Source: an uncultured Methylomirabilota bacterium
GTDB taxonomy: Bacteria > Methylomirabilota > Methylomirabilia > Methylomirabilales > 2-02-FULL-66-22
DNA: 64,000 nt
NCBI GenBank assembly: GCA_963705305.1
Contig: OY970067.1
Span: 1,824,001 to 1,888,000 of the forward strand
Direction: 5' to 3'
How positions within the stretch are numbered: position 1 is the stretch's first letter; each line of letters begins with the position of its first letter. The position numbers and the translations under genes are program-made. The notes under the pieces are model-generated. The model was not told the origin of the DNA. It did no database searches and was given only the letters and a program-made list of their open reading frames with translations. Shown here one piece after another: positions 16,543-35,042 of this stretch.

Positions 16543-18312
16543 ATGAGATACACCCGAACACCCGCCCAGCCGGACCCCGGCCCCCCCGGGCGCCCCTTCG
16601 CGGGGCTCTGCTTCGCCATCTACGGCCGGAAGTCCACCCTCGACGCCCGGCACGAGGACCACAAGTCCGTGACCCGCCAGGTCGAGCAGGCGACGCGCTA
16701 TGTCGAGGCCCGGGGCGGGGAGGCCCTCCCGGGCCACGTGTACCTCGACGACGAGGTCAGCGGGGCGGAGTTCCGGGCGCGGGCGGGCCTCCTGCGGTTC
16801 CTTGACACCCTGAAAAATGGGAGGGCCTTCAACGCGGTCGTCACGTCCGAGGAGTCCCGCTTCGGCCGGGAGCAGCTCGAAACGGGCTACCTCCTGAAGC
16901 AGATCACTGACGCCGGCGTCCGGGTGTTCTACTACCTCGAAGACCGGGAGGCCCGCCTCGACTCGGCCCTCGACAAGATCATGGCCTCGCTCACGCTCTT
17001 CGGCGCCGAGCTGGAGCGGGAGAAGGCCCGGCAGCGGGCCCGGGATGCCGCCGAGCGGAAGGCCCGCCAGGGCCTCGTCACGGGCGGGGAGCCCTACGGC
17101 TACCAGAATGTCCCCTACCGCGCCGGGCAGGAGGTCCCCCCCGGGGAGCCCCACGACTGCGTGAAGCGTCGGATCCAGCCGGCCGAGGCGGCCATCGTCC
17201 GGGGGATCTTCCGGATGTACGCCGCCGGCTGGGGCATCACCAAGATCGCCAAGACCCTGAACGGCGTCCCGACCTATGCCGCGCAGAGCGCGGAATTCTT
17301 CACCGGCCAGCGGGTGGCCGCCCCCCGGACCGGCTCGTGGGCGCCGACGGCCATCCGGGCTATGCTCCACAGCCCCCTCTACCGCGGGGAGCTCGTCTGG
17401 GGACGGACGACGCACACGGACCGCGACGGCCGGGCCCGGCTCACGGCGCGCCGGCCGGCCCGGGAGTGGCTCCGGCAGCCCGCCCCCGACCTGCAGATCA
17501 TCCCGGACGAGTTGTGGGCCGCCGTCCAGGCCCAGCTCACCCGGCAGGCCGAGAAGTTCGCCCAGCCCGGCGCTGGCCGGGTGGCCGCCCCGGACCTCCG
17601 GCGGGAGGGTCGGTACCTCCTCTCCGGCCTGGCCCAGTGCGGCGTCTGCGGGGGGACCTTCGCCGTGGCGGGGGGCAAGTACCGGCGGTACGGCTGCGCC
17701 CACGCCCTGAAGCGGGGCGTCTGCGACAACCGCCTCTCCCAGCGGGTGGAACTGGTCGAGGAATCCTTCCTCGCCACCCTGGAGCGGGAGGCCCTCCTCA
17801 CCCCCGCGCGGTTCCTGCGGGCGGTCGAGTACGGGGTGGCGCGGGTGCAAGAGGAGCTCGCCGCGCAGCCGGACCGGCGGCCCGCCCTGGAAGAGGAGCG
17901 GGCCACTCTCACCCGGCAAATCGCGCACCTCGTGGCGGCCATCGGCAACGGCCATGGCCCGGCGGCCCTGGTGGCGGAGATCGAGAAGGCCGAAACCCGG
18001 CTCCGGGACATCGAGGGGGAACTCGCCCGCCTGACGGTGCCGCCAGCCCTCGGCGTCCTTGACCTGAAGCGGATCGAGCGGGATGTAGCGCGGGAGCTCG
18101 GCCGCTTTGCCGCCCTCCTCCGTGGCGACGTGCCGCAAGCCCGGCAAGCCCTGAAGCGGCTCCTGGCGGACCGCGTGACGTTCGATCCGGTCGAGCTGGG
18201 AGACGGCACGTGGACGTATGAGTTTCGGGGAGAGTTGACCTACGGGGCGGTCTTACAGGAGGTTGTATCTATGGAAAAAATCCCCCTGGGGACACCATTT
18301 ATATATACGTAA
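16543..18312 (+). CDS. Large serine recombinase (integrase)
   Basis: GGAGGT RBS; IYGRKST catalytic Ser, ESRFGR, recombinase domain (PYGY; W..TAIRAML..PLYRG), LLSGLAQCGVCG Zn ribbon, coiled coil. Confidence 0.95.
   Translation: MRYTRTPAQPDPGPPGRPFAGLCFAIYGRKSTLDARHEDHKSVTRQVEQATRYVEARGGEALPGHVYLDDEVSGAEFRARAGLLRFLDTLKNGRAFNAVVTSEESRFGREQLETGYLLKQITDAGVRVFYYLEDREARLDSALDKIMASLTLFGAELEREKARQRARDAAERKARQGLVTGGEPYGYQNVPYRAGQEVPPGEPHDCVKRRIQPAEAAIVRGIFRMYAAGWGITKIAKTLNGVPTYAAQSAEFFTGQRVAAPRTGSWAPTAIRAMLHSPLYRGELVWGRTTHTDRDGRARLTARRPAREWLRQPAPDLQIIPDELWAAVQAQLTRQAEKFAQPGAGRVAAPDLRREGRYLLSGLAQCGVCGGTFAVAGGKYRRYGCAHALKRGVCDNRLSQRVELVEESFLATLEREALLTPARFLRAVEYGVARVQEELAAQPDRRPALEEERATLTRQIAHLVAAIGNGHGPAALVAEIEKAETRLRDIEGELARLTVPPALGVLDLKRIERDVARELGRFAALLRGDVPQARQALKRLLADRVTFDPVELGDGTWTYEFRGELTYGAVLQEVVSMEKIPLGTPFIYT
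18264..18309 (+). other. att-like site A, inside the recombinase 3' end
   Basis: TGTATCTATGGAAAAAATCCCC-CT-GGGGACACCATTTATATATACG; imperfect palindrome around CT. Confidence 0.75.
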
Positions 18313-18475
18313 GTGTGATTCGGTTTGGATCTGTTCCTTGACGATTTTCCCGCGTTGAACTGACCCCCCATCGAAATCAACTATCCCATTCCTCCGCCTG
18401 CAAGGCTGATCCGGACTCTTGTTCGAGGCGGGCGGGCGCATCCTTGAGTTACGGGGGTGGGGCCCGTATCGTCCG

Positions 18476-21193
18476 TCAGCTTCCCGGGCCCGCAAAGGGC
18501 ATCCGCACGGTGAAGGTACTCCCGCGACCCTCGCCAGGAGACTCCGCCCAGATCCGTCCGCCATGCAGCTCCACCAGCCGCTTGCTCAGGGCGAGACCGA
18601 GGCCGGTGCCCTCCTGGGCCTGGGCGCGGGTGGTCTCGAGCTGGGTGAAGTTCTGGAAGAGCTTCGGGAGGTCCTCCGCCCGGATCCCCACGCCGGTGTC
18701 GGTGACGGCGAGCTCGAGGAACCGCGGGGGGGCAGGGGCGCCGGAGAGCGGGGGTGAGGTGTCTCGCGTGGCTCCCGCCGCCTCGGCGCACGCGCGGGCG
18801 GTGAGGGTGATGGTGCCCCGTTCGGGGGTGAACTTCACCGCGTTGGAGAGAAGGTTGAACAGGATCTGCTTGAAGCGGACGGGGTCGGCCGTGAGTGGGG
18901 GGAGGTCCGGGGCGATGGCGGCCGTGAGGACCTGCCCCTTCTCGCTGGCCAGGCCCCGGGCGATGACGAGGAGGTCCTCCAGAGTCTGGGCCACCGGGAG
19001 GGGCTCGGGCTGGAGGGCGATCTTCCCCGCCTCCACCTTCGCGAGGTCGAGGATGTCGTTGATGAGGGTGAGGAGGTGCTGGCCGCTCCCGTAGATGTGG
19101 CCCAGGTAGCGGCGCTGCTTCTCCGACAGGGCGGCCCCGACCTGCTCCTGGAGGATCTGGGCGAACCCGAGGATCCCGTTCAGGGGGGTCCGGAGCTCGT
19201 GGGACATGTTCGCGAGGAACTCGGACTTGTGCCGGGAGGCCGCCGCCAGCTCGGCCGTGCGGGCAGCGACCCGCTCTTCCAGTTCGGCGGCGTGGCGCTG
19301 GACCTCCGAATACAGCCCCGCGTTCTCGATGGCGATGGCGGCCTGGGTGGCAAACACCCGCAGGAGATTACGCTCGTCGGGGGTGAATTGCTCGCGGGGG
19401 TGCTCGTAGTCGAGCGCCAGGACGCCGATGAGCCGCTCGCGATAGAGAAGCGGTTCCCCCATCACGGCACTGATCTGCTTCCGCGCGAGCACTCGCTGGT
19501 CGGCGTACGGCTCGCCGGGATAGTTGGTCGTGACCACCCCTTCCCGGCGCCGGGCCACCTGCCCGGCGAGGCCGCCCTCCAGCGACTGCGGGGTGTCGGC
19601 CCGCCAAGCTTCGTAGCCGATCCAGGCCTGCGGCACGAGCTGGCCGGTCGCCGCCTCCCACAGGAAGCACGTCCCCGAGGTCGCGCACATGAGGCGGGTC
19701 GCCTGCTCCACAATGAGTTGGAGCAGGCGGGTGAGGTCCAGCTCGTGGGTGAGCTCGGTGCTCACCTCTCGGACGGCTTCGAGCTGCGCCGTACGGGCCC
19801 GGAGCGCCGCCTCGGCTTCCTGGCGTTCGGCGATCTCCTGCCGAGCCGTCTGGTAGAGGCGCACGTTCTCGCTGTAGAGCTGGCTGGCGGCCACGGCCCC
19901 GGCGATCTGGCCAGCGATGCGCTCGGCGAGCCGCACATCCCGGTCGGTATAGGCGTTGGCCTGGCGCGACCGCAGGAGCAGTCCCCCGATGACCCGGCCC
20001 TTCGAGAACAGGGGGACATTGAGAATCGACCGGAAACCTGCCTGGAAGGTCGAGACGAGGCCCGGGAATCTGTCTGCATATGCTCGAAAGTCATCCGTCT
20101 GGATCAGCAGGCTGGCCCCGGTCCGGACCACCTCGGCGTGGCCCGATCCTTCCAGGGGATACTCCTCCGAGGTATTCCGATCCTGGAGGCCCTCGCCTGC
20201 GATGAACGGATTCCGAACAACATTCTTCTCCGTATCGATGTGGCTGATGAGAATGCGGTCGAACGGCAGGACCTTCCGGGCTTCCGCAGCAAAGTTCTCG
20301 TAGACCTCCTCGATATTCAGGGTGGAGCTGATGAGCCGCCCCAGCTCCGCCATGATCGCTTTTTCCTGGGCTAGGCGTCGCGCCTCCTCCTCGCTGTGCC
20401 GGAGTTCCGCCTCGGCCTGCTTGCGGACGGTGATGTCTTCGATGAAACCCTCTAGGCGGAGGAGGTGGTCCACTTCATCGCGCACGGCCCAGACGTGGAG
20501 GAGACCCGGGAACGTGCTGCCGTCCTTGCGTCGATACAGGGTCTCCACGACGATCGGCACACGGCTCTCCGTAATCCTCTTGACGATCTCGGCGCGCTGT
20601 GGCGGGTCCGCGTACAGGTCGGTTGCCACATCATTGATTGCCCGCACGAGTTCTTCCGGAGACTCGTAGCCGAACATGAGGGCGCACGCGGGATTAACGT
20701 CGAGGAGCTTCCCTTCCAGCGTCGATTGGAAGATGCCCAGTACGGCGCGCTGAAAGAACCGGCGATGGCGCTCCTCACCTCCCCGGAACGCCAACTCGGC
20801 CGCCGCCCGCGCTCGGCGGAGGGTGCCGTAAGCGAGCGCCCCCCGGACGGCGTCCCCGAGCCGGGCGAGCCGGTCCTTGAGGAGGTAGTCAGCCGCCCCG
20901 AGCCGCAGGCATTCCAGGGTGACCTCCTCGCTGACGGTCCCGGTGACGATGAGCGTCGGGATGTCCCGGCCCTGCGCGCGCAGGAGCCCCAGCGCGTCCC
21001 GGGCGGTGAAGCCCGGCAGGGTGTAGTCGGCCAGGATGAGGTCCAGGGCGGGGGTGAGGTGCGCGAGGAAATCCGCCTCGGTCTCCACCCACTGCCAGTC
21101 GGGGGCGTACCCGGCTTCCTCGAGATGCCGGACCATCACCGCGGCGTCCGTGGGGCTGTCCTCGAGAATGAGCACCCGGAGCGGAGTGGCCAT
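18476..21193 (-). CDS. Sensor histidine kinase, REC-PAS-GAF-GAF-HisKA-HATPase
   Basis: VLILED, DLILADY; FLANMSHELRTPLN; NLLSNAVKFT, DTGVGI, GTGLGL. Confidence 0.95.
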   Translation of the reverse strand: MATPLRVLILEDSPTDAAVMVRHLEEAGYAPDWQWVETEADFLAHLTPALDLILADYTLPGFTARDALGLLRAQGRDIPTLIVTGTVSEEVTLECLRLGAADYLLKDRLARLGDAVRGALAYGTLRRARAAAELAFRGGEERHRRFFQRAVLGIFQSTLEGKLLDVNPACALMFGYESPEELVRAINDVATDLYADPPQRAEIVKRITESRVPIVVETLYRRKDGSTFPGLLHVWAVRDEVDHLLRLEGFIEDITVRKQAEAELRHSEEEARRLAQEKAIMAELGRLISSTLNIEEVYENFAAEARKVLPFDRILISHIDTEKNVVRNPFIAGEGLQDRNTSEEYPLEGSGHAEVVRTGASLLIQTDDFRAYADRFPGLVSTFQAGFRSILNVPLFSKGRVIGGLLLRSRQANAYTDRDVRLAERIAGQIAGAVAASQLYSENVRLYQTARQEIAERQEAEAALRARTAQLEAVREVSTELTHELDLTRLLQLIVEQATRLMCATSGTCFLWEAATGQLVPQAWIGYEAWRADTPQSLEGGLAGQVARRREGVVTTNYPGEPYADQRVLARKQISAVMGEPLLYRERLIGVLALDYEHPREQFTPDERNLLRVFATQAAIAIENAGLYSEVQRHAAELEERVAARTAELAAASRHKSEFLANMSHELRTPLNGILGFAQILQEQVGAALSEKQRRYLGHIYGSGQHLLTLINDILDLAKVEAGKIALQPEPLPVAQTLEDLLVIARGLASEKGQVLTAAIAPDLPPLTADPVRFKQILFNLLSNAVKFTPERGTITLTARACAEAAGATRDTSPPLSGAPAPPRFLELAVTDTGVGIRAEDLPKLFQNFTQLETTRAQAQEGTGLGLALSKRLVELHGGRIWAESPGEGRGSTFTVRMPFAGPGS

Positions 21194-21258
21194 GGGGGGA
21201 GCCTAGCGGGCCAGCCTCAGGCTGTCAAACAGGCAGCACGTATCGACGGCTCTTTCTG

Positions 21259-22192
21259 TAATCCGGGACGTTGCCAAGCAATTCACGGAGCGGCCGTGAG
21301 CAGTCGCTCCCACCGCGCGCGCTCCACGCGGCCGCGCGCTACCGCCTGGGACACCGCCTGGGGGGAGACCCCGAGGACGGGAGCCCGGGGCCCCGCGGGG
21401 TGCCCGCCCACCGCCACCCAGCGGGAGGCGATGCCGGCCCGGGCGCGCGCCACCGCGCCGGGGCCCCCCCGCCAGGGTGGCCCGCCCCAGACCGCCCTAG
21501 CGGCAGCCCCGGGCCGTGCGGGGCGCCCCCCGGAGGGCGGGTCTGCGGACCGGGGCGGCCGACGCCCCCGCCGGCTGCCGCTGCGCCGCAAACGCCGCCC
21601 GGCCGCGGATCCGCGCATCCCCGCGATCCGCCGCGCGCGGGCGGGGGCCGCACTGCCCAAGGCTGGTCCGCGTGTCTCGCCAGGCCCGGGGGCCCGTTCC
21701 CCCGAGCGCGCTGTGGCCGGTCCAGGGGCAGCGGGCGAGCGTCCGGAGCGCGGGCACGCCGTTCGCGCGGCGCGGGTGGAGGTGCAGGTAGCGGACGCGG
21801 TCCCGGAGGGAGGGCGCCGCCGCCACCACGAGGGCCGTGTCGCGGCTCTGGAAGAGGTGCCCGACCCGCTTCTGGCGGCGGTTGACGGCCCCGGCGGAGC
21901 CGGTCCGGAGGGACCGCATGCTCCGGGGCAGGGGGCGCGTCCCGGTCCGGACCAGGCGGTGGGCGTGGTTCGGGAGGGCCCAGGCGTAGACGGTGAGGGC
22001 CCCCTGCTCCGCCAGGGCGGCGAGGCGGACGAGGAAGTCCGTCCGATCGGTGTCGGCGCGGAAGAGCCTGGTGCGCTCGATCCCGCGCACCCTCACCTGG
22101 TGCAGCGTGTCCGGCGCCTCCAGCCGCGGCTGGCGTGGCCTGATGGAGTTGCGGCTCGCACACCTTGGTTTACTTGGCAACGTCCCGGATTA
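21259..22192 (-). mobile_element. Degenerate RAYT-like (Y1 HUH) transposase element with 20-bp inverted repeats
   Basis: RGIER, PNHAH (HUH), GHLFQSR motifs, frameshifted C-terminus; perfect IR TAATCCGGGACGTTGCCAAG at 21259-78 and 22173-92. Confidence 0.8.
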
Positions 22193-22380
22193 TTCCGCCC
22201 TTCGGTTCCCGGCTCCGGATCAGATGCTGCGCCTGCAAGTGACTGGTGACTCACATTCGCGGAGTCACAGGCGGAGGTAATGCGGGTCGTTTCGTATTCA
22301 AGAAATACACCCGAATGCGCGGATTCCTGAACTACCCCCATGTTTTCCAACAGACGACAAACATGGTCCACCCGCCCTAA

Positions 22381-23319
22381 TTACGGACAGTACTCGTTGC
22401 CATTTCCACTGAGTCTTCTTCCGCCAGCACACTTTATATCGCAGTGAATGTCATTGAGTTTGTAGGTCCATATTTGATTACAAGCCCCACCACCGCCCCA
22501 AAGATCTAGAGAGCTGCCATCATCGCTAATCTTGACCTTGTATGTGTAATCTCTTTCGAGGCCCGGCGCATATAAGCACTGGCCGGGCCAACTGGCTTCC
22601 AAACCATCCAGGGTCAATTCCCCTGGCCCCATGTGCACCCATCCGTTGGCAGAGTGAACCCCGTAATTGAGCTTATTTCCCTGTACATCTATCTCCCAAG
22701 CTCCACAAAGAAACCGCGCGCCGTTAAGTCGGGCGAGCAGCTCTTGCTGCTTCTTTTGTCTCTTTGCCGCAATTCCTGCCGGGCTTGACTCCCAGGCTCG
22801 CTGTTGCTCCTCTTGCTGTCTCTTCACCTGTTCTTCCGCCGCGGCCTGCTTATACGCCTTCAACTTGTAGATTTCGTCCTGGGCGTCGCGGGCGTCGGCG
22901 GGGTGGGTCAGCAGGTAAAGGTTCAGGCTGGCGATGGCGTCGTCATACTGATGCGCTGCCTTCTGGACGATGGCCAGCTTCTCATAGGCCTCCGCCCACC
23001 AGGGAGCGGCCAGCAGCGCCGCTTTGTATTCATCAATGGCTCTGGCGAAGCCGCTGCTTTCGGTCGCTTTCTCCGTGAATGCCTGCGCCATGACGTAGTG
23101 CGCGCGGGCCTCTTCGGGAATCGCCGGCGCCGGACTCATGGTCTGCACAAGCGCGATGATCTTCTCCCGCAGCGCCGTGTCGCCGGGGTTGCTCTGCAGA
23201 TCGGCGACGTATTGGTTGAGCGTCTGCTGCGGGTCAGCCGTCTGCGCCCGCGCCGGAATGGCGACCGCGCATAACAGCGGGAAAAGCATAATTCCCAGAA
23301 GAATCGTTCTTGTCTTCAT
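22381..23319 (-). CDS. Secreted TPR-repeat protein with Cys-containing C-terminal domain
   Basis: Signal peptide ending ARA-Q; AIDEYKAALLAAPWWAEAY TPR-like. Confidence 0.75.
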   Translation of the reverse strand: MKTRTILLGIMLFPLLCAVAIPARAQTADPQQTLNQYVADLQSNPGDTALREKIIALVQTMSPAPAIPEEARAHYVMAQAFTEKATESSGFARAIDEYKAALLAAPWWAEAYEKLAIVQKAAHQYDDAIASLNLYLLTHPADARDAQDEIYKLKAYKQAAAEEQVKRQQEEQQRAWESSPAGIAAKRQKKQQELLARLNGARFLCGAWEIDVQGNKLNYGVHSANGWVHMGPGELTLDGLEASWPGQCLYAPGLERDYTYKVKISDDGSSLDLWGGGGACNQIWTYKLNDIHCDIKCAGGRRLSGNGNEYCP

Positions 23320-23387
23320 GGTTTGTCACTCCTTGGTACAGCATTTTTCGATTGGGCACGGGGGGAGGGCCGCGCAGGCGTTGCGGG

Positions 23388-25723
23388 CTATGGCTGCGCC
23401 GGGCGCATGGCGTTATGGACCGGGAACACGGAGGCCAGATGGCGGGCGTGGTCCAGGATCTCGTCGACGTATGTGCTGTCAGGGGCCAGGCTCTTGGCCA
23501 TTTCCATCTCCCTGACCTCGGTGGCGTAGTTTCCCCACGCTTCAGAGAGCAGAGCGTTGCCGACCAGCATCTCCACGGTCTTATTAACCAGTGCATAATA
23601 GTGTAGACATTAGGCGGCCGCCGCATACTTGGTCGTGGGGGCCTGGAAGAAGGACCGGACGATCAGAGGGGAGTGCTGGAGGTGCCGGAGGTGCGAGCGC
23701 ACCGCCCGCTGCAGGTCGGCGGGGCCGGTGAGGGCCATCCGGCCGATCCCGTTGTTCTTGAGATCGTTCCAGACCCACTCGTCGGGGTTTAGTTCGGGCG
23801 CGTAGGGCGGGAGGCGAAAGAGCTGAATCCGGGGCGCCACGGAGGCGACGAACTTCTCGACGCGCTTCGCCCTGTGGGCCGGGTGCCCGTCCACGATGAC
23901 GAAGAGGACGCCGGGGACATCGTGGAGGAGGCGCTTGAGGAACGCGATGAACACCTTCGCGCCCACCCGGCCCTTGGTCGCCATGAACCGGAGTTCCCCC
24001 CGCGGGGAGACGGCCGAGAGCCGGGTCAGGCCGAAGCGGGCCCCGGTGGTCGAGACGATGGGGGTCTGGCCGCGGGGCGCCCAGGGGGTCCCCGCGTGGG
24101 CATCCGAGCGGATCCCGGCCTCGTTGCCAAAGAAGAGGCGCGCGTGCTGGCGCTGGGCGGCCGCCGCGATCTGGGGGTACTCCTCCTGGAGCCACCGCTC
24201 GACCTGGGCCGGGTCCTGCTGGTAGGTCCGCCACAGGGGGCGCTGGGCGCTCAGCCCGAGCTGGCCGAGGAGCCGACTCACGGAGCTGCGGCTGAGGGGA
24301 ATGCCGAACCGGTCCCGGATGAGCGTCGCCACCAGCGAGGCCGTCCAGAGGGCGAAGAGGAAGTGGAGTTGCTGCGGGCTCTTCCCGGTCACCGTGTCGT
24401 AGAGCCAGCGGAGGGCCTTCCCGTCCAGCTTCGGCGGCCGGCCCCCCCGCTTGCGGGCATCCAGGGCGTGCCAGCCGTACACGGCTTGGCGGGACACCCC
24501 GAAGACCCGCGCCACCACTTCGGGGCTCTCCCCGCCCTGGATTTGGGTCACGGCGCGGGTGCGCAGTTCGGTGAGCATCCGGTGATCGAGGCGGCGGGCA
24601 TCATTAAGTCGCATACCGGTTTCACAGCATCCCTAGCGATGTATGTCAATACTATTATGCACAGATTAGTAACATCGTGCCCAGGGGCTTTGAAGTTCGC
24701 CGACATCACGGCCAGGGCCAGGTCCCAATTGGCGATGACCTTGTTGCCGGGGTCGAGTTGGCCGGCGCGTTTGGCGGAATCGCTGGCCGTGGCTGCGTCA
24801 CCCATCATCAGGGCCGCCAGGCCGTGGTAGAGCCACTGCATGGCCCGGTCCTTGTCTTCCTGCTCCTTTTGCTGGCGACCCTTCAGAATGTCCTGCGCCA
24901 GCAGCAGGCCGTTGCGCACCAGAGGGTCGTCGGGGCGCTGCAACTGCGCCTGCTTGAAGTACGCGACCGCATCCTGGGCGTCCTGGACGCTGAACGTCGG
25001 CCGCATCAGCGCCTGGAAGCCTTTGTTGTAGTTGGCGTTCTGGAAGGTGGCCGGGTCAATCTGGGCCGGGAAGACGCGCTCCTCGCCCCGCACGACGTGC
25101 GGATCCAGCGTGATCGGTTTGTCCGGGTCCAGGCCCAGGCAGCGGAGATCGACCACGGCGGATCCCAAGTTGCCCCACTGGCATCCCGGATCCTTCGCCG
25201 TTTGCACGCCGCTCGAACTGGGAGCGTCCTTCAGGCCGAGGGCGCCCGTGCCCGTATCGCCGAGGCCCTTGAGCCCGAGGGTGTTCCCGGTCTCGGCCCC
25301 CTCCAGGCCAAGCTCGCCCGCGATGCCCTTCATGTCGCGCAGCGCCTCCTGCTTGCTTTGCTCGAACTCCGCCTGCCGGCGCTGAGCCTCCTCGGCCTCC
25401 TGCCGCTGGCGCTCGGCCTCCTGCCGCCGCAGCTCCTCTTCCTGGCGCTGGCGTTGGGCCTCCTGCCGCTGGCGCTCGGCTTCGTCGTCAATGGAGGGCG
25501 ACGCGGGAGGCCCTGTACTTCGGCCGCCCCAGTTCGGGCCGGGCGCGCAGCTCATGCTCCCTGAATTCGGGACGCCGCCGCACGCGGAGCACCAGGCCGC
25601 ATACGCCCGCCACCACGCCCCCCCAAAGCCGGCCGGCGGGCTGCTACAGTTCTGCGCCGCGGCCAGCGAAGGCAGCAGCACCGCCACCCCGAGCAAAGCG
25701 GCCACACCGAGGAGCCGTTTCAT
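23388..25723 (-). pseudogene. Secreted coiled-coil/TPR protein interrupted by IS630
   Basis: Signal peptide MKRLLG...AAAQ; removing the IS joins HDVTN to KTVEMLVGNALL in frame. Confidence 0.8.
23587..24666 (-). mobile_element. IS630-family insertion sequence (transposase 23610-24614)
   Basis: IRs ACCAGTGCATAATAGTGTAGACAT / ATGTCAATACTATTATGCACAGAT, TA duplication; FGNEAG, VDGHPAH, PPYAPELNPDE; first catalytic Asp appears as Asn. Confidence 0.93.
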
Positions 25724-25894: not shown

Positions 25895-26551
25895 GTGGGG
25901 GAACTACGGAAGCTGGGCATCGCGGTGGCCAAATCCACGGTCGAGAACTATCGCATCCGCCCGCGCCGGCCGCCCTCCCCGTCGTGGCGAGCCTTCCTGA
26001 AGGCTCACCTCTCGGAGATCGTCGCGCTGGACTTTTTCACGGCCCCGACGGTCAACTTCCGGGTGCTCTTTGTGCCCATCGTGCTGGCGCATGACCGCCG
26101 GCGGATTCTCCATTTCACTGTGACCGCGCATCCAACCGCCCACTGGACCGCCCAGCAGCTGGTCGAGGCCTTCCCCTGGCGTACGGCCCCCCGGTACCTG
26201 CTCCGGGATCGCGATGGGGTGTATGGCCAGACCTTTCAGCAGCGCGTGGCGGGCTTGGGCCTGGCGCAAGTGCTCACCCCGCCGCGGAGTCCCTGGCAGA
26301 ATCCGTTTGCGGAGCGCCTCATCGGGAGCATTCGATGGGAGTGTCTGGACCACGTGATCGTCTGCAGCGAAGAGCATCTCCGCCGCATCCTCGCGCGATA
26401 CGTCGATTATTATCACCGCTGGCGGACGCCCTTGTCATTGGCCATGGATGCTCCCGACCGGCGCCCGGTGCAGCGGCCGGATCAGGGTGCCATCATCGCG
26501 GTGCCGGAAGTGGGTGGGTTGCATTACCACTACGAACGGAGGGCTGCGTGA
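25895..26551 (+). pseudogene. 5'-truncated integrase-core (rve/DDE) transposase
   Basis: ALDFF, LLRDRD, PWQNPFAERLIGS; no N-terminal HTH region. Confidence 0.8.
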
Positions 26552-26771
26552 GGGCCGACGTGCGATGAGTTTTCGGGAGGGACACTCAGCGGAGGAAACG
26601 AGCTTGCCGGCGGGTTTGGTCGGGGTTCATTACAACGGCCAGGAGTTCCTGCGTGGGGGCGACGTTCTAGTGAGGCTTCCAGGCAGGGAGGCCAGATAGT
26701 ATCTTGTGTACTATCTTTATGTTCGGTATTTTGGGTGTCCGCTGAGCTACCCCGCGGCCAGACCCATGACA

Positions 26772-28076: not shown

Positions 28077-28505
28077 TTTCTTTCCTCCGTTTCAAACCTT
28101 TTCACGAAATTGTGATGGGAAAGATCGTAGGAGAATCCGTCCCACCACCGACCATCCCCGCACGGCCTGTGCGTGCGGCGCAGCGCGGGGGCCTTAACCG
28201 GATAGGAAGTTGGAAACCGACCTCGGCGGGACGCCGGGCCGGACGAGGCGGAGCGGCCACGGGGCGGCCGAACCGAGGGGAGAACCCGCGAAGACCTCAA
28301 TACGGCAGGGACGGTACCACCGGCGGGCTGGGGGTGTCAAGGAGGGAAATCACGGGGAACAGGAATACGTTCGGTAGCACGCGGCGCGCCTGTCCCTCCT
28401 GAAAACCCCATCCTGCCGGACCTCACGCCGCTCGCCGTTCATAATGGCGATCTAAGCCGCCGGAACCTCGTGTTTCTAAAGGCGTATGATGCCTGCGATG
28501 TCAAG

Positions 28506-28530
28506 TGTACAAAAGCCTTCGGGTCCCCCT
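28506..28530 (+). other. att-like site B, left half (split by IS110)
   Basis: TGTACAAAAGCCTTCGGGTCCCC-CT; rejoins 30053 to give TCCCC-CT-GGGGACACCA. Confidence 0.75.
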
Positions 28531-28544
28531 TATATTCTCTTCGA

Positions 28545-28770
28545 GGGAAATGAGAGTACGTCGAGTATTCTGGCTCCCCCGACGAGACAGGATCCGGAGT
28601 TCGCTGGTTGAGGACCGGAGTCCCCCCATCCCGGGCGAGGATCATCCCCAGACCGTCCCCTCCAGCGACTATACGGCGTCAGGTTCAATGGGAAGTCGTC
28701 CCTCTCGAGGACCGATATAAGGCCAACCCGCCGTTCCGGACTCCGGGATCCGCTGACGGGAGAAGTGAGG
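28545..28770 (+). ncRNA. Putative IS110 bridge RNA (ends approximate)
   Basis: Target guides GTCCCCC (28620-26) and TCCCCAG (28645-51); donor guides GGAAGTC (28691-97) and ATATAAG (28715-21). Confidence 0.8.
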
Positions 28771-28777
28771 ACAGGCG

Positions 28778-29995
28778 ATGCGGTGCTACATCGGGGTGGA
28801 CTGGGCCGATACGGCGCATGCGATCAGGGTGGAGGACACACAGGGGGCCCGGGTGCTCGAGCGGGTCGTCCCTCACACGGCCGAGGGGCTCGCCGAGTGG
28901 GGGCGCTGGCTGGATGAGCGGCGGGCGAGCGGGGCGGAACTCTGGGCGGCCATCGAGCGGCCGGACGGGCGGGTGGTGGACTTCCCCCTGGATCACGGGG
29001 GGCGCGTGTTCCCGATCAACCCCAAGGCCCTGGACCGGGCGCGGGACCGCTACCGGATGAACGCCTCCAAGAGCGACCCCTTCGACGCCCACGTGCTGGC
29101 GGCCTTCCTCCGCACGGATCACCCTCATCTGCATGCCCTGCAGCCGAGCTCGGAGGCCGCCCAGGAGCTCAAGCTCCTCACACGGGACTCTGCGCGCCTC
29201 GTGCGCGACCAGACCCGCCTCGTGAATCAGCTCACGGCTACGCTGAAAGAGTACTACCCCCGGGCCCTGGAGGTCTGTGGCGACGTCCCCACCAAGCGGG
29301 CGGCGGCTTTCCTTCGCGCCTACCCGACCCCCGCGGCCTTGGCGGCGCTCGCCCGGGCCAAGTGGCTCCGATTCGCCACCCTGCATCGCTGGAACGCCGA
29401 GCCGGCGGCCGCCCTCTGGGAACTGTTCCGTCACCCGCAGCTGCCCGTGCCGGAGCACGTGGTGCGCGCCAAGCGCCGCCTCGTCCTCGTGCTGCTCCGG
29501 CCGCTCGAGACCGTCGTCCAGGCCGTGGACGACTCCCGCAAGGCGGTGATGGAGTTCTTCGCGCCGCTGCCGGCGGCGGCGTGGGCCACCACCCTGCCGG
29601 CCAGCCAGGGGACGCTGGTCCCCACGATCTGGGCCGAGCTCGGTGATGCGGCCAGCCGCTGGGTGTCCTGGCAGCACCTCCAGGGGCACAGCGGGGTGGT
29701 CCCGGTGACCCGATCCAGCGGCAAGTCCCACGCGGTCTGCTTTCGCTTCGCGTGCAACCTCCACCTCCGTCGGGCCCTCCAGCAATTCGCCTTCTGCTCG
29801 CTCAAGTCCAGCGAGTGGGCGCGGGCCTACTACGATCAGCAGCGGGCGCGCGGCCATCGGCACCAGGCCGCGCTCCGCGCCCTCGCAGCAAAGTGGGTGA
29901 AGATCCTCTTCGTGCTCTGGACCCGGCAGATCGCCTATGACGAGAACTACCATCTCGCCATGAGGACGCGCCAACAGTTGCGGCAGGCAGCATGA
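28778..29995 (+). CDS. IS110-family DEDD recombinase
   Basis: GVDWA, AIE, KSDPFDA (DEDD); SGVVPVTRSSG serine motif. Confidence 0.95.
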   Translation: MRCYIGVDWADTAHAIRVEDTQGARVLERVVPHTAEGLAEWGRWLDERRASGAELWAAIERPDGRVVDFPLDHGGRVFPINPKALDRARDRYRMNASKSDPFDAHVLAAFLRTDHPHLHALQPSSEAAQELKLLTRDSARLVRDQTRLVNQLTATLKEYYPRALEVCGDVPTKRAAAFLRAYPTPAALAALARAKWLRFATLHRWNAEPAAALWELFRHPQLPVPEHVVRAKRRLVLVLLRPLETVVQAVDDSRKAVMEFFAPLPAAAWATTLPASQGTLVPTIWAELGDAASRWVSWQHLQGHSGVVPVTRSSGKSHAVCFRFACNLHLRRALQQFAFCSLKSSEWARAYYDQQRARGHRHQAALRALAAKWVKILFVLWTRQIAYDENYHLAMRTRQQLRQAA

Positions 29996-30050
29996 GCATC
30001 TTTCTAAAGGCAATACTACTCCGTGCTCTTGACAAGGGGTCATAGGAAGT

Positions 30051-30075
30051 CTGGGGACACCATTTATATATACGT
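30051..30075 (+). other. att-like site B, right half
   Basis: CTGGGGACACCATTTATATATACGT is identical (25 bp) to 18286-18310. Confidence 0.85.
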
Positions 30076-30847
30076 TCCACGCCGGGAAGTCCGCCCTCGA
30101 TACCGTAAGACATCCGTTCCGGAAAAGTACCCTACTCCTGAGCGATGGTGCCTCGCAGGTGCACGACGACCTCACCCTGATACGGGTAGCTGCGGGAGGA
30201 GAAGTCGTTTCGGGTGCAGCCCGCTGTGTACCCTGGCCGAGTACCTGTGGCTCCTGAAAATACGTAATCAGCTTCCCGGGTGCTCTTTCTCTCACTCTGG
30301 ACCCAGCGGCCTGCCGCGACGAATTCCGTGTGTGACCACAGGACCTGTTGCATGATGCCCATCGGGCCTGCCCGGCGCGCCGTTGCGGGTGGGATGGTCC
30401 GCGCGCGGAATGGTCTCCACCGCGACACCGGGCCGCGGCGGCACCCCGTGTCGGTAACGATGGAGTCGTCGAAAGGTCGGCGGACCAGCCTCCCCTTCGG
30501 GAAGCACACGGCCGGCTTTCCCATTTTCCTGGGAACCCCTTTCGGCGTGGTATGGGGCCCTGTCCCAGCCGCGCTTTTGGGGTAGCCCCTGCACTTGGAG
30601 CGGCCGGAGGAAAGAGACCGACGAGGAGGATATACACCTCCGACGCAGCAGGTTGAGCGCGGGGCGAGCCCAAAGCGGCAGGCACAAAAAAGCCTTCGGC
30701 TCGCGAGAGCCGGAGGTCTCGTCCTCGACAGCCGCCTCATCGCCGTGGTCAGCTGTATGGATGCCCATGCCGCACTCTGTGGCGGGAATCACGGTGAGGT
30801 TGGCGATGGGCCCGTCAATGGTCGTCTTGAGTCCGCGAGTCCCCGCG

Positions 30848-31024
30848 CTACGACGGCATGTGCAGGATGCGCACCGGCATCGCCCGCTCGGCGCAGTCGC
30901 AGTGCCCCACGCACACGATCTGCCCCACGTGGCAGGGGCACTCCACTTTCGGATCCGACGTCTTTCCACACGCGCAGTCCCGGTTCTTCACGGACGCCCG
31001 GTCGGACTTGTTTCCGTACTGCAT
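30848..31024 (-). CDS. Small Cys-rich protein, 58 aa
   Basis: AAGGAGGAG RBS; MQYGNKSDRASVKNRDCACGKTSDPKVECPCHVGQIVCVGHCDCAERAMPVRILHMPS. Confidence 0.45.
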   Translation of the reverse strand: MQYGNKSDRASVKNRDCACGKTSDPKVECPCHVGQIVCVGHCDCAERAMPVRILHMPS

Positions 31025-31427
31025 CACTCCTCCTTGGCACGTGCTTCCAAGCTCGCTTCGGCCTTTCACTGCGGTCGGCAAATGGTTCAAGACCGGTGCC
31101 AGGAGACGCGCAGAACGATTGCAGGTGGCCGAGACGAGGAAAGTCCAGTTAATGTGGCGGTTTGAGAGTCCGTGCTTCCCGACGTGTGTAGCCGCAATCC
31201 CCCACCAGGGCCATGGGCGTGAGATGCTTTGTCTCAGCGAAAGGCGCAGCATAGGTCGCTGCTGCCGGAGTATCGCTCCACTGCGCGCAAAAATTGCCGT
31301 CCGCAAAAATTCTCTTCGGCGTGCGCTCCGTTTTCGGGAAGCACATGTGTCTACACCCGCGAGCCGAATGCGTGATACCATGCCGCCATTGTATCGCAGC
31401 ACCTCACCCGTACAGGGAAGGACGGAG

Positions 31428-32762
31428 ATGACTCTCGACGAAGTGAAGCGTTCCGTCTATGCGGCCATTGACCAGCGTGCCGACGAGATCATTGCCATGG
31501 GCGAGCGGATCCGGCAGCATCCCGAGCTCGGCTTCAAGGAGGTCCAGACCGCGCGCCTGGTCGAGGAGACCTTCACAAACCTCGGCCTCCCACCGCGGAC
31601 CGGGCTCGCCATCACCGGGGTTCGGGCGGAGCTCCCCGGGGGAGCGGGGCCGGGGCCGAGCGTCGCCCTGCTCGGCGAGCTCGACGCCTTGGTCGTGGAC
31701 GGCCATCCCGACCGGGACCCGGCCACCGGGGCGGCGCACGCCTGCGGGCACAACGCCCAGATCGCCGCGCTCCTCGGGGCGGCCATGGGCCTCGTCGCCA
31801 GCGGCGCGGCGGCCCACCTGGCCGGGCGCGTCGTCCTCTTCGCCGTGCCGGCCGAGGAGTACGGCGACATCGCCTGGCGCCTCGCGGAACGCCAGGCGGG
31901 GCGCCTCGAGTTCCTCGGCGGCAAGCCCGAGCTCCTGCGCCTCGGCCAGTTCGACGATGTGGACCTGGCCGTGATGATCCACACGACCTCCCGCCCGGAA
32001 GAGGGCCAGGTCGGGGTCCCGGAGTCCAACAACGGCTGCGTGGTCAAGACCATCCGCTACATCGGCCGACCCGCGCACGCGGGGGGCGCGCCCCACTTGG
32101 GCGTCAACGCGCTGTATGCGGCCCAGATCGCGCTCGCGGCCATCAATGCCCTCCGAGAGACCTTCCGGGACGAGGACAGCATCCGCATCCACCCGATCAT
32201 CACGGCGGGCGGTTCCCAGGTGAACGTGATCCCGGCCGACGTCCGCCTGGAGACGTACGTCCGGGGTAAGACGGTGCAGGCCATCCTGGAGGCGGACCGC
32301 AAGGTGGACCGGGCCCTCCGGGCGGGGGCGCTGGCCCTGGGGGCCACGGTCGAGATCGAGACCTGGCCCGGCTACCTGCCGGTCGCCAATGATCCGCTCC
32401 TCCGGGAACACTTCCGCCGGCTCGCGGTGTCCCTCGTCGGGGCGGAGCACGTCCGCACTCTCGGGCACCGGGCGGGCTCGACCGACCTGGGCGACCTGTC
32501 CCACGTCATGCCCACGCTCCATCCCTACATCGGCGGGGCCGCGGGCGCCGGGCACGGGGCCGACTACCGGATCGTCGACCCGGCACTAGCGTACGTCACG
32601 AACGCCAAGTTGCTCGCCGGCATGGCCGTTGACCTGCTCGGGGATGGGGCCCGACGGGCCCGCGAGGTCGTGGCCCAGGCCAAACCGCAGATGACCCGGG
32701 CAGAGTACCTCGTGTTTCAACGCGGGATCACGCGGCGGGAGACGTACGAAGGGGGATCGTAG
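31428..32762 (+). CDS. M20-family amidohydrolase
   Basis: HPELGFKE, GELDAL, HACGHN, PAEE, GSTDLG. Confidence 0.93.
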   Translation: MTLDEVKRSVYAAIDQRADEIIAMGERIRQHPELGFKEVQTARLVEETFTNLGLPPRTGLAITGVRAELPGGAGPGPSVALLGELDALVVDGHPDRDPATGAAHACGHNAQIAALLGAAMGLVASGAAAHLAGRVVLFAVPAEEYGDIAWRLAERQAGRLEFLGGKPELLRLGQFDDVDLAVMIHTTSRPEEGQVGVPESNNGCVVKTIRYIGRPAHAGGAPHLGVNALYAAQIALAAINALRETFRDEDSIRIHPIITAGGSQVNVIPADVRLETYVRGKTVQAILEADRKVDRALRAGALALGATVEIETWPGYLPVANDPLLREHFRRLAVSLVGAEHVRTLGHRAGSTDLGDLSHVMPTLHPYIGGAAGAGHGADYRIVDPALAYVTNAKLLAGMAVDLLGDGARRAREVVAQAKPQMTRAEYLVFQRGITRRETYEGGS

Positions 32763-32826
32763 ATGACCATACCCACAACGCGGGTGCCAGTTGCTCAAGG
32801 AGAACCCTTGTAGGTACTCGTCGGAC

Positions 32827-32873
32827 CGTATATGTAAAGCGCATCCCCCTGGGGACACCACCGTGCCTGCAAC
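32827..32873 (+). other. att-like site C
   Basis: CGTATATGTAAAGCGCATCCCC-CT-GGGGACACCACCGTGCCTGCAAC; left arm mirrors the right arm of A and B. Confidence 0.8.
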
Positions 32874-33338: not shown

Positions 33339-33635
33339 ATGCCAGGGCTGCGAATCGAGTGGGACGAGTCCAAGAATCGTGCGAACGTGCGCAAGCACAA
33401 GATCTCTTTCCAGGAGGCGGCGACGATCTTCTATGATGAACGGGCGCTGCTCCTGGCAGACCCTGACCATTCCGAGGAGGAAGACCGGTTCATTCTGCTC
33501 GGACTCAGCGCCACGCTCCGGCTGCTGGTCGTCTGCCACTGCTACCGGCGCCGCGACGCGTCCATTCGAATCATCTCAGCGCGGAAGGCCACGAAGCCGG
33601 AGGCGGCGGTCTACGCGGACAGGTGGGGCCCATGA
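33339..33635 (+). CDS. brnT: BrnT-family toxin
   Basis: EWDESKNRANVRKHKISF...HSEEEDRF...IRIISARKAT. Confidence 0.92.
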   Translation: MPGLRIEWDESKNRANVRKHKISFQEAATIFYDERALLLADPDHSEEEDRFILLGLSATLRLLVVCHCYRRRDASIRIISARKATKPEAAVYADRWGP

Positions 33636-33850
33636 GAAAGCAGTATGATTTCAGCAAGGCGACCCGGAACCCCTATACGGCGCAGCTCAAGCGGCAGGTC
33701 ACGATCCGACTGGACGAGCCGACCATCCGCTACTTCAAACAGTTGGCCGAGGAGACTGGCGTCCGGTACCAGACCCTGATCAACCTTTACCTTCGGGACT
33801 GTGCGGCCTCGGGCCGCAAGTTGGCCCTGACCTGGAAGCCGGCGGCGTAA
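33632..33850 (+). CDS. brnA: BrnA-family antitoxin
   Basis: MRKQYDFS...VTIRLD...YFK...YQTLINLYL; ATGA overlap with the toxin. Confidence 0.9.
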   Translation: MRKQYDFSKATRNPYTAQLKRQVTIRLDEPTIRYFKQLAEETGVRYQTLINLYLRDCAASGRKLALTWKPAA

Positions 33851-33862
33851 TCTGGCGCCCGC

Positions 33863-33882
33863 GGGTCCCCCCGGGGACACCA
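33863..33882 (+). other. att-like site D (degenerate)
   Basis: GGGTCCCC-CC-GGGGACACCA, 12 nt after the brnA stop. Confidence 0.5.
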
Positions 33883-34123
33883 TAACCACCCCTGCTCGAC
33901 TCCTCGCGCTCTTCCGGTGTGTTTGATCCCCCTTGGAGCGTGATCCTGATAGTGGTGTTTCGCACCGAACGCCCCGCCTTGCACAATTCACTCGGCCGCC
34001 ACCTCCCCGGCACCACGGTCGGCCGATCAAGCTCGTGGCCGAGTTATCAGGCTTTTCGGGCAACCGCCCCCCTTGCTCTTACGACGCCGAGTTCTCCGCC
34101 GGTGACCAAGGATGATCTCCCGT

Positions 34124-34151: not shown

Positions 34152-34157
34152 ACTCTC

Positions 34158-34412
34158 ATGACGACCAGGCAGCGACGGACGCTGCGAGCGGTGTCTGCTG
34201 TTCCGACTCGCACCAATCTGCGCTTCTCGGATGTCGCCGGCTTGATCGTCGCCCTGGGCGGCGAGGTCCGGGAGGGCGCCGCCTCGCGCGTGGTGTTCGA
34301 GTTGAAGGGAAGGCGTCTCTACCTGCATCGGCCACACCCCGTGCACGAGGCGAAGCGGTATCAGGTGGAAGAGGTGCGCGAGTTCCTGCCCGCGCTGGAG
34401 ATCCAGCCATGA
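34158..34412 (+). CDS. hicA: HicA-family toxin
   Basis: LIVALGGEVREGAASRV...LHRPHP...KRYQV. Confidence 0.9.
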   Translation: MTTRQRRTLRAVSAVPTRTNLRFSDVAGLIVALGGEVREGAASRVVFELKGRRLYLHRPHPVHEAKRYQVEEVREFLPALEIQP

Positions 34413-34738
34413 CGAACACCATGACGTATAAAGGCTACACTGCCCGGGTCGAGTACGATCCGCGGGACGAGATTTTCGTTGGCCGTGTTCTTGGGATCGA
34501 GGATCGCATCACATTTCAGGGCGCGACGGTCGCCAAGCTGCGTCGTGACTTTCACGCGGCAATTGATCACTACTTGGCCGACTGTGCCGCGCGCGGCCGG
34601 ACCCCGCAGAAGTCCTATTCGGGAAAGATCCTTCTCCGTGTGGCCCCCGAGATTCACGCCCGCGCCGCCATGATCGCCGAAGAGCAGGGCAAGAGCCTGA
34701 ACCAGTGGGCCGCGGAGGTCTTGGCCCGCGCCAACTGA
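34409..34738 (+). CDS. hicB: HicB-family antitoxin
   Basis: YKGYTARVEYD...ITFQG...YSGKILLRV...SLNQW. Confidence 0.92.
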   Translation: MTNTMTYKGYTARVEYDPRDEIFVGRVLGIEDRITFQGATVAKLRRDFHAAIDHYLADCAARGRTPQKSYSGKILLRVAPEIHARAAMIAEEQGKSLNQWAAEVLARAN

Positions 34739-34994
34739 AGCGGGCCGACCACCCGCGACTGCAGTTGGCTGAGAGGCAGGTACCCGCTAGCAGCCCCCGA
34801 TCAACCCTCCCTCCGCAACTGCACGACGTCCGGCCGCAAGTTGATCTTTGTCGGGAAGGCCGTAGTGTAGTCCGCAGGAAGCTGCCGTCCTATGAATGGA
34901 CGCGCAGACAACCGATCCCCGCCATTCCAATGACATCGATCAATCACCGCTTTTCCTGTCGTCATTGCGACATCACCAGACCCTCGATGGCAAA

Positions 34995-35042
34995 TGTCCA
35001 CGCAGGGTTGGGTCCCTTTGGGGACACCACCCCGCCCGCTAC
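34995..35042 (+). other. att-like site E (degenerate)
   Basis: TGTCCACGCAGGGTTGGGTCCCT-TT-GGGGACACCACCCCGCCCGCTAC; left arm like B, right arm like C. Confidence 0.55.

Follow-up and report, generated by a model that had tools for sequence, protein, structure and literature searches.

Introduction

In staphylococci, large serine recombinases (LSRs; CcrAB or CcrC) insert the cassettes of SCCmec and of composite staphylococcal cassette chromosome (SCC) islands at the 3′ end of one conserved gene, and the units of such arrays, some of which carry no recombinase gene, are bounded by short direct repeats. Islands that accrete through tyrosine integrases, such as the classical tRNA islands of the CIME/ICESt3 kind, have an intact tRNA gene at one end and 3′-end repeats that bound the units. 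In the part of the account by McMurdie et al. (2011, PMC3146451) that is drawn on here, the ssrA islands of Dehalococcoides lie in tandem downstream of the transfer-messenger RNA (tmRNA) gene and have at their ends a 20-bp repeat taken from its 3′ end; insertion is assigned to the T-loop/T-arm region, and the islands encode a CcrB-like LSR, DsiB, together with a small partner, DsiA. Here we analyze a stretch of 64,000 nucleotides (the window) from the 5.65-Mb genome of an uncultured Methylomirabilota bacterium, in which an LSR gene is followed by five copies of a short repeat, sites A to E. Judged from its sequence, the locus is most probably a series of integrative elements stacked in tandem at the 3′ end of a single tRNA-Glu(UUC) gene. 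Positions below are those of the window unless marked as genome positions.

Serine recombinases are not commonly associated with tRNA genes. According to the portion of Ghinet et al. (2011, PMC3218068) cited here, they seldom integrate into tRNA genes, the examples being eight Mycobacterium elements in tRNA-Leu and phage phiRSM1 in tRNA-Ser, and a 2026 survey (PMC13626063, cited in part) states that proviruses with serine integrases prefer protein genes. In streptococcal integrative and conjugative elements (ICEs) that occupy rumA, attR lies within the serine integrase gene (PMC4701971, likewise in part). Islands that depend on an LSR and are stacked at a small-RNA gene are known already; what sets the present locus apart is that tRNA-Glu is the target, that the final codons of the integrase gene contain the attachment site, and that a sizeable family in soil bacteria uses the quasi-palindromic tRNA junction in both orientations.

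Results

The repeated core is the 3′ end of a tRNA-Glu gene

A motif search of the window found the core TCCCYNNGGGGACACCA as exact matches at 18281, 32844, 33866 and 35013, and a fifth copy (site B) divided between 28529 and 30053 by an IS110-family element; one unrelated match with 2 mismatches lies at 60352. Shuffled versions of the window contained a mean of 0.69 matches, and none of 100 shuffles reached five, so the recurrence on which the original prediction was built is real. The core is also tied to the integrase, as that prediction had supposed, rather than scattered over the chromosome: in its 17-nt form it occurs in the whole genome at only those four places of the array, and the 10-mer GGGGACACCA has 28 genome copies, five of them within 16.7 kb at the array. 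The arms around the core fall into the predicted classes. The right arm TTTATATATACGT is common to sites A and B, its mirror image forms the left arms of A and C, and B, D and E have GGGTCCC on the left; the right arms of C and E match at 9 of 13 positions by eye, a weak likeness given the GC-rich DNA. The 13-mer TTTATATATACGT has only four copies in the genome, every one at a site of the same kind. The sites resemble attachment sites of serine integrases whose arms have been exchanged at a central point. In addition to the five, a probable decayed site lies between D and E, at ~33917–33957.

The source of the core was found 3.4 kb to the left of the window. ARAGORN, run on the genome, reports an intact tRNA-Glu(UUC) gene at genome 1820499–1820576 on the plus strand, ending in ATCCCGCTGGGGACACCA, which is the only UUC copy that the genome has. 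The core corresponds to the T-stem/acceptor-stem junction followed by the 3′ strand of the acceptor stem, the discriminator base and CCA of this tRNA, and the gene is therefore a sixth, founding copy in addition to the five sites described before. A tRNA gene within the window was ruled out, as ARAGORN finds none there. All five sites are on the plus strand, downstream of and co-oriented with the tRNA gene, at distances from the tRNA copy of 21,721, 33,486, 36,284, 37,306 and 38,453 bp (core-to-core spacings from A to E of 11,765, 2,798, 1,022 and 1,147 bp). They share 10–19 nt with the tRNA, and a search for its 3′ half over 80 kb returned only the gene itself, A, the right half of B, C, D and E above noise. 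The locus is thus a 38.5-kb tandem array downstream of tRNA-Glu, consisting of a 21.7-kb element (element 1) and four segments without an integrase (11.8, 2.8, 1.0 and 1.1 kb). Since the core is the tRNA-Glu 3′ end, the attachment-like sites are explained without a new integron-like system.

The integrase family is linked to tRNA genes

The LSR is encoded at the far end of element 1. Resolvase (PF00239, 2.6e-17), Recombinase (PF07508, 5.8e-20) and Zn_ribbon_recom (PF13408, 6.4e-9) domains follow one another in it, it matches the integrase family phrog_95 (4.5e-74), and tblastn and a scan with PF07508 showed it to be the only intact full-length copy of its type in the genome. All of 35 aligned homologues have Y27, R29 and S31, and S31 would, from its position, be the nucleophile. 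The last codons, ...M E K I P L G T P F I Y T and the stop (18310–18312), coincide with site A; the core therefore does lie within the integrase C-terminus, as predicted. We read the tRNA-Glu gene as attL and site A as attR of a single element of 21.7 kb, with the P arm of site A being the 3′ end of the integrase gene.

Homologues at 50–70% identity form a clade with this LSR, and the tails of the 35 aligned proteins diverge just after ...PLG or PSG, which is at the core. The left arm of site A, that is, the last integrase codons, is kept in homologues. We fetched 26 metagenome loci, ten of which, at 55–62% identity, include the 3′ end of the integrase gene. In seven of these ten the gene ends in tRNA-Glu-like sequence: five end in a tRNA 3′ end in direct orientation (TGGGGACGCCA in L037, L042, L047 and L051; the variant GGGGCCACCA in L048), and two meet it inverted, L038 running into an intact tRNA-Glu(UUC) on the opposite strand and L049 into a T-arm fragment. 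At greater distance, L030, from a Rokubacteria metagenome-assembled genome (37% identity), and L057 (39%) adjoin an intact tRNA-Glu(UUC), and in L031 such a gene lies 8.3 kb downstream of the integrase homologue. In L057 a whole element of 4.5 kb is present together with its two junctions; these have CCCCGTGGGGACGCCA in common, and from the inverted TTATATCGG arms the centre falls on the tRNA position found in the array.

The association extends through the phylum. A search of 251 genomes yielded 30 loci, from which we dropped our own and seven matches that stopped short of the C-terminus. In 12 of the remaining 22 (31–44% identity; among L089–L116), an intact tRNA gene is convergent with the integrase gene and overlaps or abuts its stop codon: tRNA-Arg(CCU) five times, tRNA-Glu(CUC) four times, tRNA-Glu(UUC) twice and tRNA-Met(CAU) once. 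Two of the 22 have inverted tRNA-Glu-like fragments and eight nothing comparable. A profile search of genome contigs with the homologue alignment gave only seven distant loci (25–43% identity). This link between the integrase family and tRNA genes is the strongest evidence for stacking at tRNA-Glu. Searches of full-text papers, supplements apart, turned up no account of this LSR's family and no report of a serine integrase at tRNA-Glu; the TIGER/Islander database (PMC12424338), outside their scope, may hold such calls.

The genes that accompany the integrase differ from locus to locus. None of the other 16 genes of element 1 recurs beside close LSR homologues, apart from a weak 30-residue match (orf92 in L046). 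This absence of a shared backbone indicates that the integrase and its site form a module joined to variable cargo.

Imperfect dyad symmetry suggests a centre at the T-stem/acceptor-stem boundary

An alignment of 12 sites revealed an outer motif, GTAT[A/C]TAT at −22 to −15 and ATATATAC at +15 to +22, and an inner quasi-palindrome, TCCCCC/TGGGGA. The left half of site C matches the reverse complement of the right half shared by B and A at 17 of 24 positions (11 of the outer 13), where random pairs gave 6.6 ± 2.3 matches per 24 and none of 20,000 was as high. For element 1 itself, the left half of A (...TGTATCTATGG...) and the arm to the right of the tRNA (CGTAAAGATACAC...) are inverted copies equidistant from the centre, with 13 of 24 matches (p = 0.007). 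In B, D and E the outer dyad is missing from the left arm (2, 5 and 0 matches in the outer 13 nt). The centre of symmetry falls between tRNA nucleotides 67 and 68, which is the boundary between T-stem and acceptor stem. The dinucleotide there is CT in the tRNA and in A, B and C, CC in D and TT in E, and the symmetry suggests that crossover takes place at this dinucleotide.

The sequence TCCC(G/C)C resembles the complement of GGGGAC, and for this reason the tRNA-like half can be carried in either orientation across the integrase family. It is direct at the array and inverted in L038, L057 and most of the phylum-level loci. The left arm of B recurs at genome 4780300 (minus strand) and in the relative G005, each time with an inverted tRNA T-arm after it; we therefore read it as the probable P arm of an element of the inverted class, the GGGTCCC arm type being the one common to B, D and E.

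Site B is interrupted precisely at its midpoint (...GGGTCCCCC / TGGGGACACCA...) by an IS110-family element. Its transposase matches PF01548 (2.3e-30) and PF02371 (4.1e-10), and no other copy of the element exists in the genome. We set its ends by comparison with copies in two relatives, G010 (L083, G010:C39) and G020 (L082, G020:C1). The left flank of the G010 copy reads ...ATCCCCC and its right flank TGGGGAATCGAACCC...; the copy in G020 has ...GAATCCCGC on the left, and its right side is unreadable. The element thus appears to target the tRNA-Glu-type core (TCCC[C/G]C / TGGGGA) of attachment sites, which recalls the IS1111 elements that target the attC sites of integrons.

Relatives carry other sequences behind the same tRNA gene

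All six relatives of the same genus that we examined have different sequence immediately 3′ of tRNA-Glu, in line with the expectation that the content at these junctions would vary. In one of them, G006, a hicAB block that is 80.6% identical to that of segment D–E over 602 bp (blastn) begins 190 bp after the intact tRNA-Glu. Because hicAB directly follows the tRNA gene there, site D is a displaced tRNA end; and since D stands where G006 has its tRNA end, the 37 kb between the tRNA and D are extra in the present genome. Between the tRNA gene and hicAB, G006 has a decayed tRNA-Glu 3′ fragment and a CTTATATATACG arm, which align with ~33917–33957.

G006 also has, 3.4 kb after its tRNA-Glu (L075 3486–3562), a site bordered on each side by an element-type arm, CGTATATATAAGTGGTATCCCCC / TGGGGACACCC AGTAAATATACG; the interval between the tRNA gene and this site is another site-bounded unit without an integrase.

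In the genome under study, tRNA-Glu 3′ fragments occur outside the window at genome 930813 (+), 1553398 (−), 1618019 (−) and ~1601890–1602380 (−) (loci L002–L004). In those at 930813 and 1618019, 31 nt identical to the tRNA precede element-type arms. A decayed one adjoins a tyrosine integrase (genome 1601250–1601738) and what remains, at 67% identity, of the C-terminus of a second integrase of the LSR family, and a weak third integrase remnant lies at genome 1556797–1557003. These fragments suggest repeated invasions followed by rearrangement.

The distal segments lack integrases

No site-specific recombinase of the serine or tyrosine type lies between the sites, as the original prediction had noted; transposases of the DDE and IS110 types do occur there. 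No tyrosine integrase is encoded between tRNA-Glu and E (26 PF00589 hits genome-wide, the nearest at genome 1601250 and 2078716), and tblastn with the 35 homologues detected no integrase remnant in the four distal segments (best E = 0.029). Table 1 lists the features of the array. In addition to the genes named there, segment A–B has a weak TPR hit and an rve_3 fragment in Pfam; brnTA are the only recognized genes of the 1.0-kb segment C–D.

Beyond E, the flank was compared with the surroundings of tRNA-Glu in 40 relatives; synteny was not found, the only matches being dispersed repeats and one at a contig end in G007. Just outside E, ~200–270 bp at 37624–37900 recur at six other places in the genome with 93–100% identity, and ~125 bp at 35350–35475 recur in several relatives of the genus with 77–87% identity; both are probably small dispersed mobile repeats. 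Two public sequencing runs cover 26% and 7% of the sampled words of the stretch, in low-coverage contigs; compared with 15500–35400, these gave short pieces with no joint at any site, data too thin to show circles or empty sites.

Table 1 Features of the array and of its surroundings (window positions; negative numbers lie to the left of the window)
Feature	Position	Strand	Basis or remark
Element 1, left end: intact tRNA-Glu(UUC), read as attL	−3501..−3424	+	ARAGORN; outside the window
Element 1, right-hand 18.3 kb (whole element 21.7 kb)	1..18312	+	ARAGORN, Pfam, PHROGs
Small serine recombinase, resolvase/invertase type, 205 aa	3334..3951	+	Pfam Resolvase 2.6e-45 and HTH_7
MerR-type helix-turn-helix protein	13114..13836	+	Pfam MerR_1 1.3e-6; no PHROG hit
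Large serine recombinase (LSR), 589 aa from ATG at 16543	16543..18312	+	Pfam, PHROGs, tblastn
Site A, read as attR of element 1	18264..18309	+	P arm (integrase 3′ end), then displaced tRNA tail TGGGGACACCA, then TTTATATATACGT of the next segment
Segment A–B, integrase-less remnant	18310..28505	.	Pfam; no LSR remnant by tblastn
Hybrid histidine kinase, segment A–B	18476..21193	−	Pfam
IS630-type DDE_3 transposase, segment A–B	23610..24614	−	Pfam
MFS transporter, segment A–B	26772..28076	−	Pfam
Site B, left half, ...TGTACAAAAGCCTTCGGGTCCCCC	28506..28529	+	Recurrence elsewhere
IS110-family element (transposase 28778..29995)	28530..30052	+	Pfam DEDD_Tnp_IS110 and Transposase_20
Site B, right half, TGGGGACACCA + TTTATATATACG	30053..30075	+	Identical to right half of A
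Segment B–C, 2.8 kb between cores	30076..32826	.	Bounded by a matched pair of element-type arms
M20-family peptidase, segment B–C	30858..32762	+	Pfam
Site C	32827..32873	+	Element-type left arm CCGTATATGTAAAGCGCATCCCCC, tRNA tail, GC-rich right arm
brnT/brnA toxin-antitoxin pair	33339..33850	+	Pfam BrnT_toxin 1.4e-28, BrnA_antitoxin 4.4e-8
Site D, GGGTCCCCC-C-GGGGACACCA	33858..33882	+	Positional counterpart of the tRNA-Glu end in G006; centre CC
Decayed site 'D2'	33917..33957	+	Pairwise alignment with G006; weak, by eye
hicA/hicB pair, segment D–E	34158..34738	+	Pfam HicB 1.1e-20, HicA 8.7e-5 (below the Pfam cut-off)
Site E, GGGTCCCTT-T-GGGGACACCA, outermost copy found	34995..35042	+	Centre TT

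Element 1 has mixed cargo

The recognized cargo of element 1 comprises Fur and an OprB porin (both left of the window), ZnuABC, the small resolvase and an IS3 transposase, an Mrr nuclease, AbiU2, the MerR-type protein, a DnaB_N and AAA_25 helicase-like pair, and the LSR. PHROGs, applied to 19 proteins, gave no function for the unnamed open reading frames (ORFs) and no phage structural genes, and no internal tRNA-like site rises above noise within the element. The MerR-type protein is a candidate directionality factor or regulator. The ORF with the DnaB N-terminal domain (14132–14749) is followed, 143 bp on, by an ORF at 14893–15918 that matches AAA_25 from profile position 48; these may be two genes, or a single helicase-like gene that a frameshift has divided.

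The small resolvase sits 12.6 kb from the LSR and is not adjacent to it. In the locus L056, whose LSR is 40% identical to ours, a resolvase (7436–8008) that is 49% identical to the one at 3334–3951 lies directly upstream of the LSR homologue (8339–9952). Such a paired layout of a small and a large recombinase is known from CcrA/CcrB and DsiA/DsiB.

Integration may exchange the integrase tail

With site A in the last codons, the arm that would follow these codons in the excised form is the one now to the right of the intact tRNA-Glu (L001 4565–4654), which in the integrase frame reads LGTPRKDTRKILSALGLRVPFRGRVALAA-stop. The predicted excised-form integrase is 21 residues longer and ends in ...RVALAA, while the integrated form ends in FIYT, so that four final residues of the integrated form would correspond to 25 in the excised form. 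The ending ALAA equals the last four residues of the tmRNA tag of this genome, ANSELALAA. In L057 the predicted excised tail (490–590) ends in ...WLRAA, and in L049 the observed tail ends in ...TRGAA; the alanine-rich ends could be due to chance in an alanine-rich proteome.

Discussion

The arrangement found is the one that the original prediction had named as its conservative alternative, namely accretion of islands in tandem at one attB. The insertions at tRNA-Glu were apparently made by a serine integrase. In the scheme that we propose, the LSR would recognize an attP of ~48 bp on its own element, composed of the outer dyad and the inner quasi-palindrome, and would use the T-stem/acceptor-stem junction of tRNA-Glu as attB. 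It would cut at the central CT, at tRNA nucleotides 67–68, and swap the arms. As the P′ arm of the element starts with TGGGGACACCA, the tRNA would be restored at attL. At the far end (attR), the displaced 11-nt tRNA tail would be left behind the P arm, which in this clade is formed by the final codons of the integrase gene. Each newcomer would enter at the restored tRNA and shift the earlier elements outward; site A would then combine the P arm of element 1, the tail, and the P′ arm of the next unit. Read outward from the tRNA, the locus would consist of the complete element, followed by the ever older integrase-less segments A–B, B–C, C–D (brnTA) and D–E (hicAB), the oldest reduced by deletion to little beyond self-stabilizing toxin-antitoxin pairs. 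The survival of such pairs in shrunken islands would be expected from their addictive nature. We infer this order of events, the crossover position and the activity of the integrase from the sequence alone.

Several observations weigh against this scheme. Canonical integrases of the phiC31/Bxb1 type are known to recombine only attP with attB, and stacking would require insertion into a tRNA that is already flanked on its right by an element arm, TTTATATATACGT. The dyad of the attP inferred for element 1 itself is modest (13 of 24). Segment B–C keeps full-length matched arms without an integrase, which plain decay does not predict. Three of the ten close homologues (L039, L040 and L046) have no tRNA-Glu sequence at the end of the integrase gene. 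The left third of element 1 (Fur, OprB, ZnuABC) has a GC content of 0.69–0.73 and a native-like composition, and the element may be composite. Finally, the outer limit of the array is not set, and the sequence to the right of E is not syntenic with tRNA-Glu in any relative searched.

The alternative that survives best takes the integrase-less segments for non-autonomous units with working attL and attR sites, which the single integrase could excise, reorder or carry along with element 1, in cis or in trans; this is the accumulation or shuffling of the original prediction in a form already known, SCC-like accretion and mobilization. Its best case is segment B–C, which lies between arms matched at 17 of 24 positions (outer 13 nt, 11 of 13) with no detectable integrase remnant. 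Moreover, A, B and genome 1618019 have one and the same 24-bp right half (TGGGGACACCA + TTTATATATACGT), with divergence immediately beyond, which looks like selection on a half-site; retained function fits both observations better than decay does. Integrase-less units bounded by target repeats in Dehalococcoides have been proposed to be cis-mobilizable, as stated in the cited part of PMC3146451. Against such a platform, site B is physically broken by the insertion sequence (IS), the left arms of B, D and E are without the outer dyad, and the homology with G006 at hicAB spans the genes and not the flanking sites, which means that no single cassette with the same ends is shared. The centres of D (CC) and E (TT) also differ from the CT of the other sites, and a mismatch at the central dinucleotide blocks productive exchange by serine recombinases. 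We regard this alternative as unlikely, though it deserves to be kept in mind.

Much less credible is the possibility that other enzymes, for example tyrosine integrases since lost, made the tRNA repeats and that the LSR came to lie at A by coincidence or secondary capture. The fragments with 31 nt of tRNA identity at genome 930813 and 1618019 bear the usual signature of tyrosine integrases, a decayed fragment does adjoin one of these enzymes (genome 1601250–1601738), and elements of that kind used the same tRNA too. The repeats of the array, however, are short (11–18 nt) and have a dyad at their centre, as serine systems do; the left arm of A, which is kept in homologues, consists of the final codons of the LSR gene; adjacency of integrase and tRNA recurs among close (7/10) and distant (12/22) homologues; and the 38.5 kb contain no tyrosine integrase. 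That the repeat is due to chance or is a dispersed element like repetitive extragenic palindromes (REPs) or miniature inverted-repeat transposable elements (MITEs), unrelated to recombination, can practically be dismissed: 19 of the 28 GGGGACACCA copies do lie outside tRNA-derived contexts, roughly the number (~24) expected from base composition, but the 17-nt core is confined to the array, no shuffle in 100 reached its count, and every copy is downstream of and co-oriented with the tRNA that it copies, so that shuffles, genome count and tRNA-Glu identity together rule out a REP-like repeat.

Among described systems, tandem elements at tRNA-Glu come closest to the SCC and ssrA-island type, with which the array shares an LSR, a target in the 3′ end of an essential gene that occurs once, and units that carry no recombinase and are bounded by the same repeat, and from which it differs in having no smaller serine recombinase partner (CcrA- or DsiA-like) next to the large one. 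To judge from the cited part of the Dehalococcoides study (PMC3146451), likeness extends to tandem islands at a small essential RNA gene, 3′-end direct repeats, insertion in the T-arm, an LSR, and units without an integration module. The target there is tmRNA with a 20-bp repeat, here tRNA-Glu(UUC) with a repeat of 11–18 nt; and the Dehalococcoides integrase lies beside attL with its small partner, whereas the LSR of the array lies at the far end, its last codons being the P arm, with the resolvase 12.6 kb away. SCCmec differs in its protein-gene target (rlmH/orfX), its two-recombinase system and its host phylum, and the array has no drug-resistance aspect.

Other systems resemble the array in single respects. 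The AICEs (integrative and conjugative elements of actinomycetes) of Mycobacterium and phage phiRSM1 likewise bring a serine recombinase to a tRNA gene and differ in the tRNA and in host lineage; neither a tandem array nor an attP within the integrase gene figures in the cited portion of PMC3218068. In the streptococcal rumA ICEs, by the part of PMC4701971 used here, a site also lies in the 3′ end of the integrase gene and integration alters the end of the gene; the target is a protein gene, and the change in the tail is small in the array. As in classical tRNA islands, the tRNA-proximal unit is complete, the distal ones are decayed, and the content is hypervariable between relatives; those islands, however, depend on a tyrosine recombinase, and the array has a serine recombinase, shorter repeats and apparently dyad-symmetric sites around a presumed 2-bp crossover. 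The enzyme of phiRSM1 is a small serine recombinase.

The unnamed integron-like platform put forward in the original prediction is not upheld, the core being a tRNA-Glu 3′ end. The likeness to integrons is superficial and consists in one recombinase gene followed by co-oriented short sites that separate small gene units, two of which are single toxin-antitoxin pairs, as in chromosomal superintegrons. Unlike an integron, the array has no IntI-type tyrosine recombinase (no PF00589 hit), its sites are explained as tRNA 3′ ends rather than attC hairpins, the LSR gene extends into the first site, where its own element ends, and the units measure 1–12 kb and contain IS elements. Nor is the integrase a platform gene that feeds cassettes to its right: it belongs to the newest, tRNA-proximal element, which lies on its left.

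A more general proposal can be made tentatively, as something possible rather than probable. The LSR would belong to a large, apparently undescribed family of serine integrases of Methylomirabilota-like and neighboring soil phyla, whose landing site would be the T-stem/acceptor-stem junction of tRNAs, docked in either orientation because the junction is quasi-palindromic, and whose attachment site would lie in the last codons of the integrase gene. In its bolder extensions the segments would be mobilizable, forming a working cassette store, and the C-terminal tail would be swapped upon integration. If the tail swap were true, the protease sensitivity of the integrase would depend on the state of its element, free or integrated.

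Taken by itself, the locus is ordinary: it can be annotated as a tRNA-Glu island hotspot with one apparently live element and four fossils. What appears under-described is the use of tRNA genes at the level of the family, in 12 of 22 loci across the phylum and seven of ten close homologues, which contrasts with the rarity stated in the cited parts of PMC3218068 and PMC13626063. If these integrases are active, they could be used as tools for integration without a landing pad in bacteria that are difficult to modify, tRNA 3′ ends being conserved across many species, and they would provide a clean case of a serine integrase that reads a structured-RNA gene as a dyad site.

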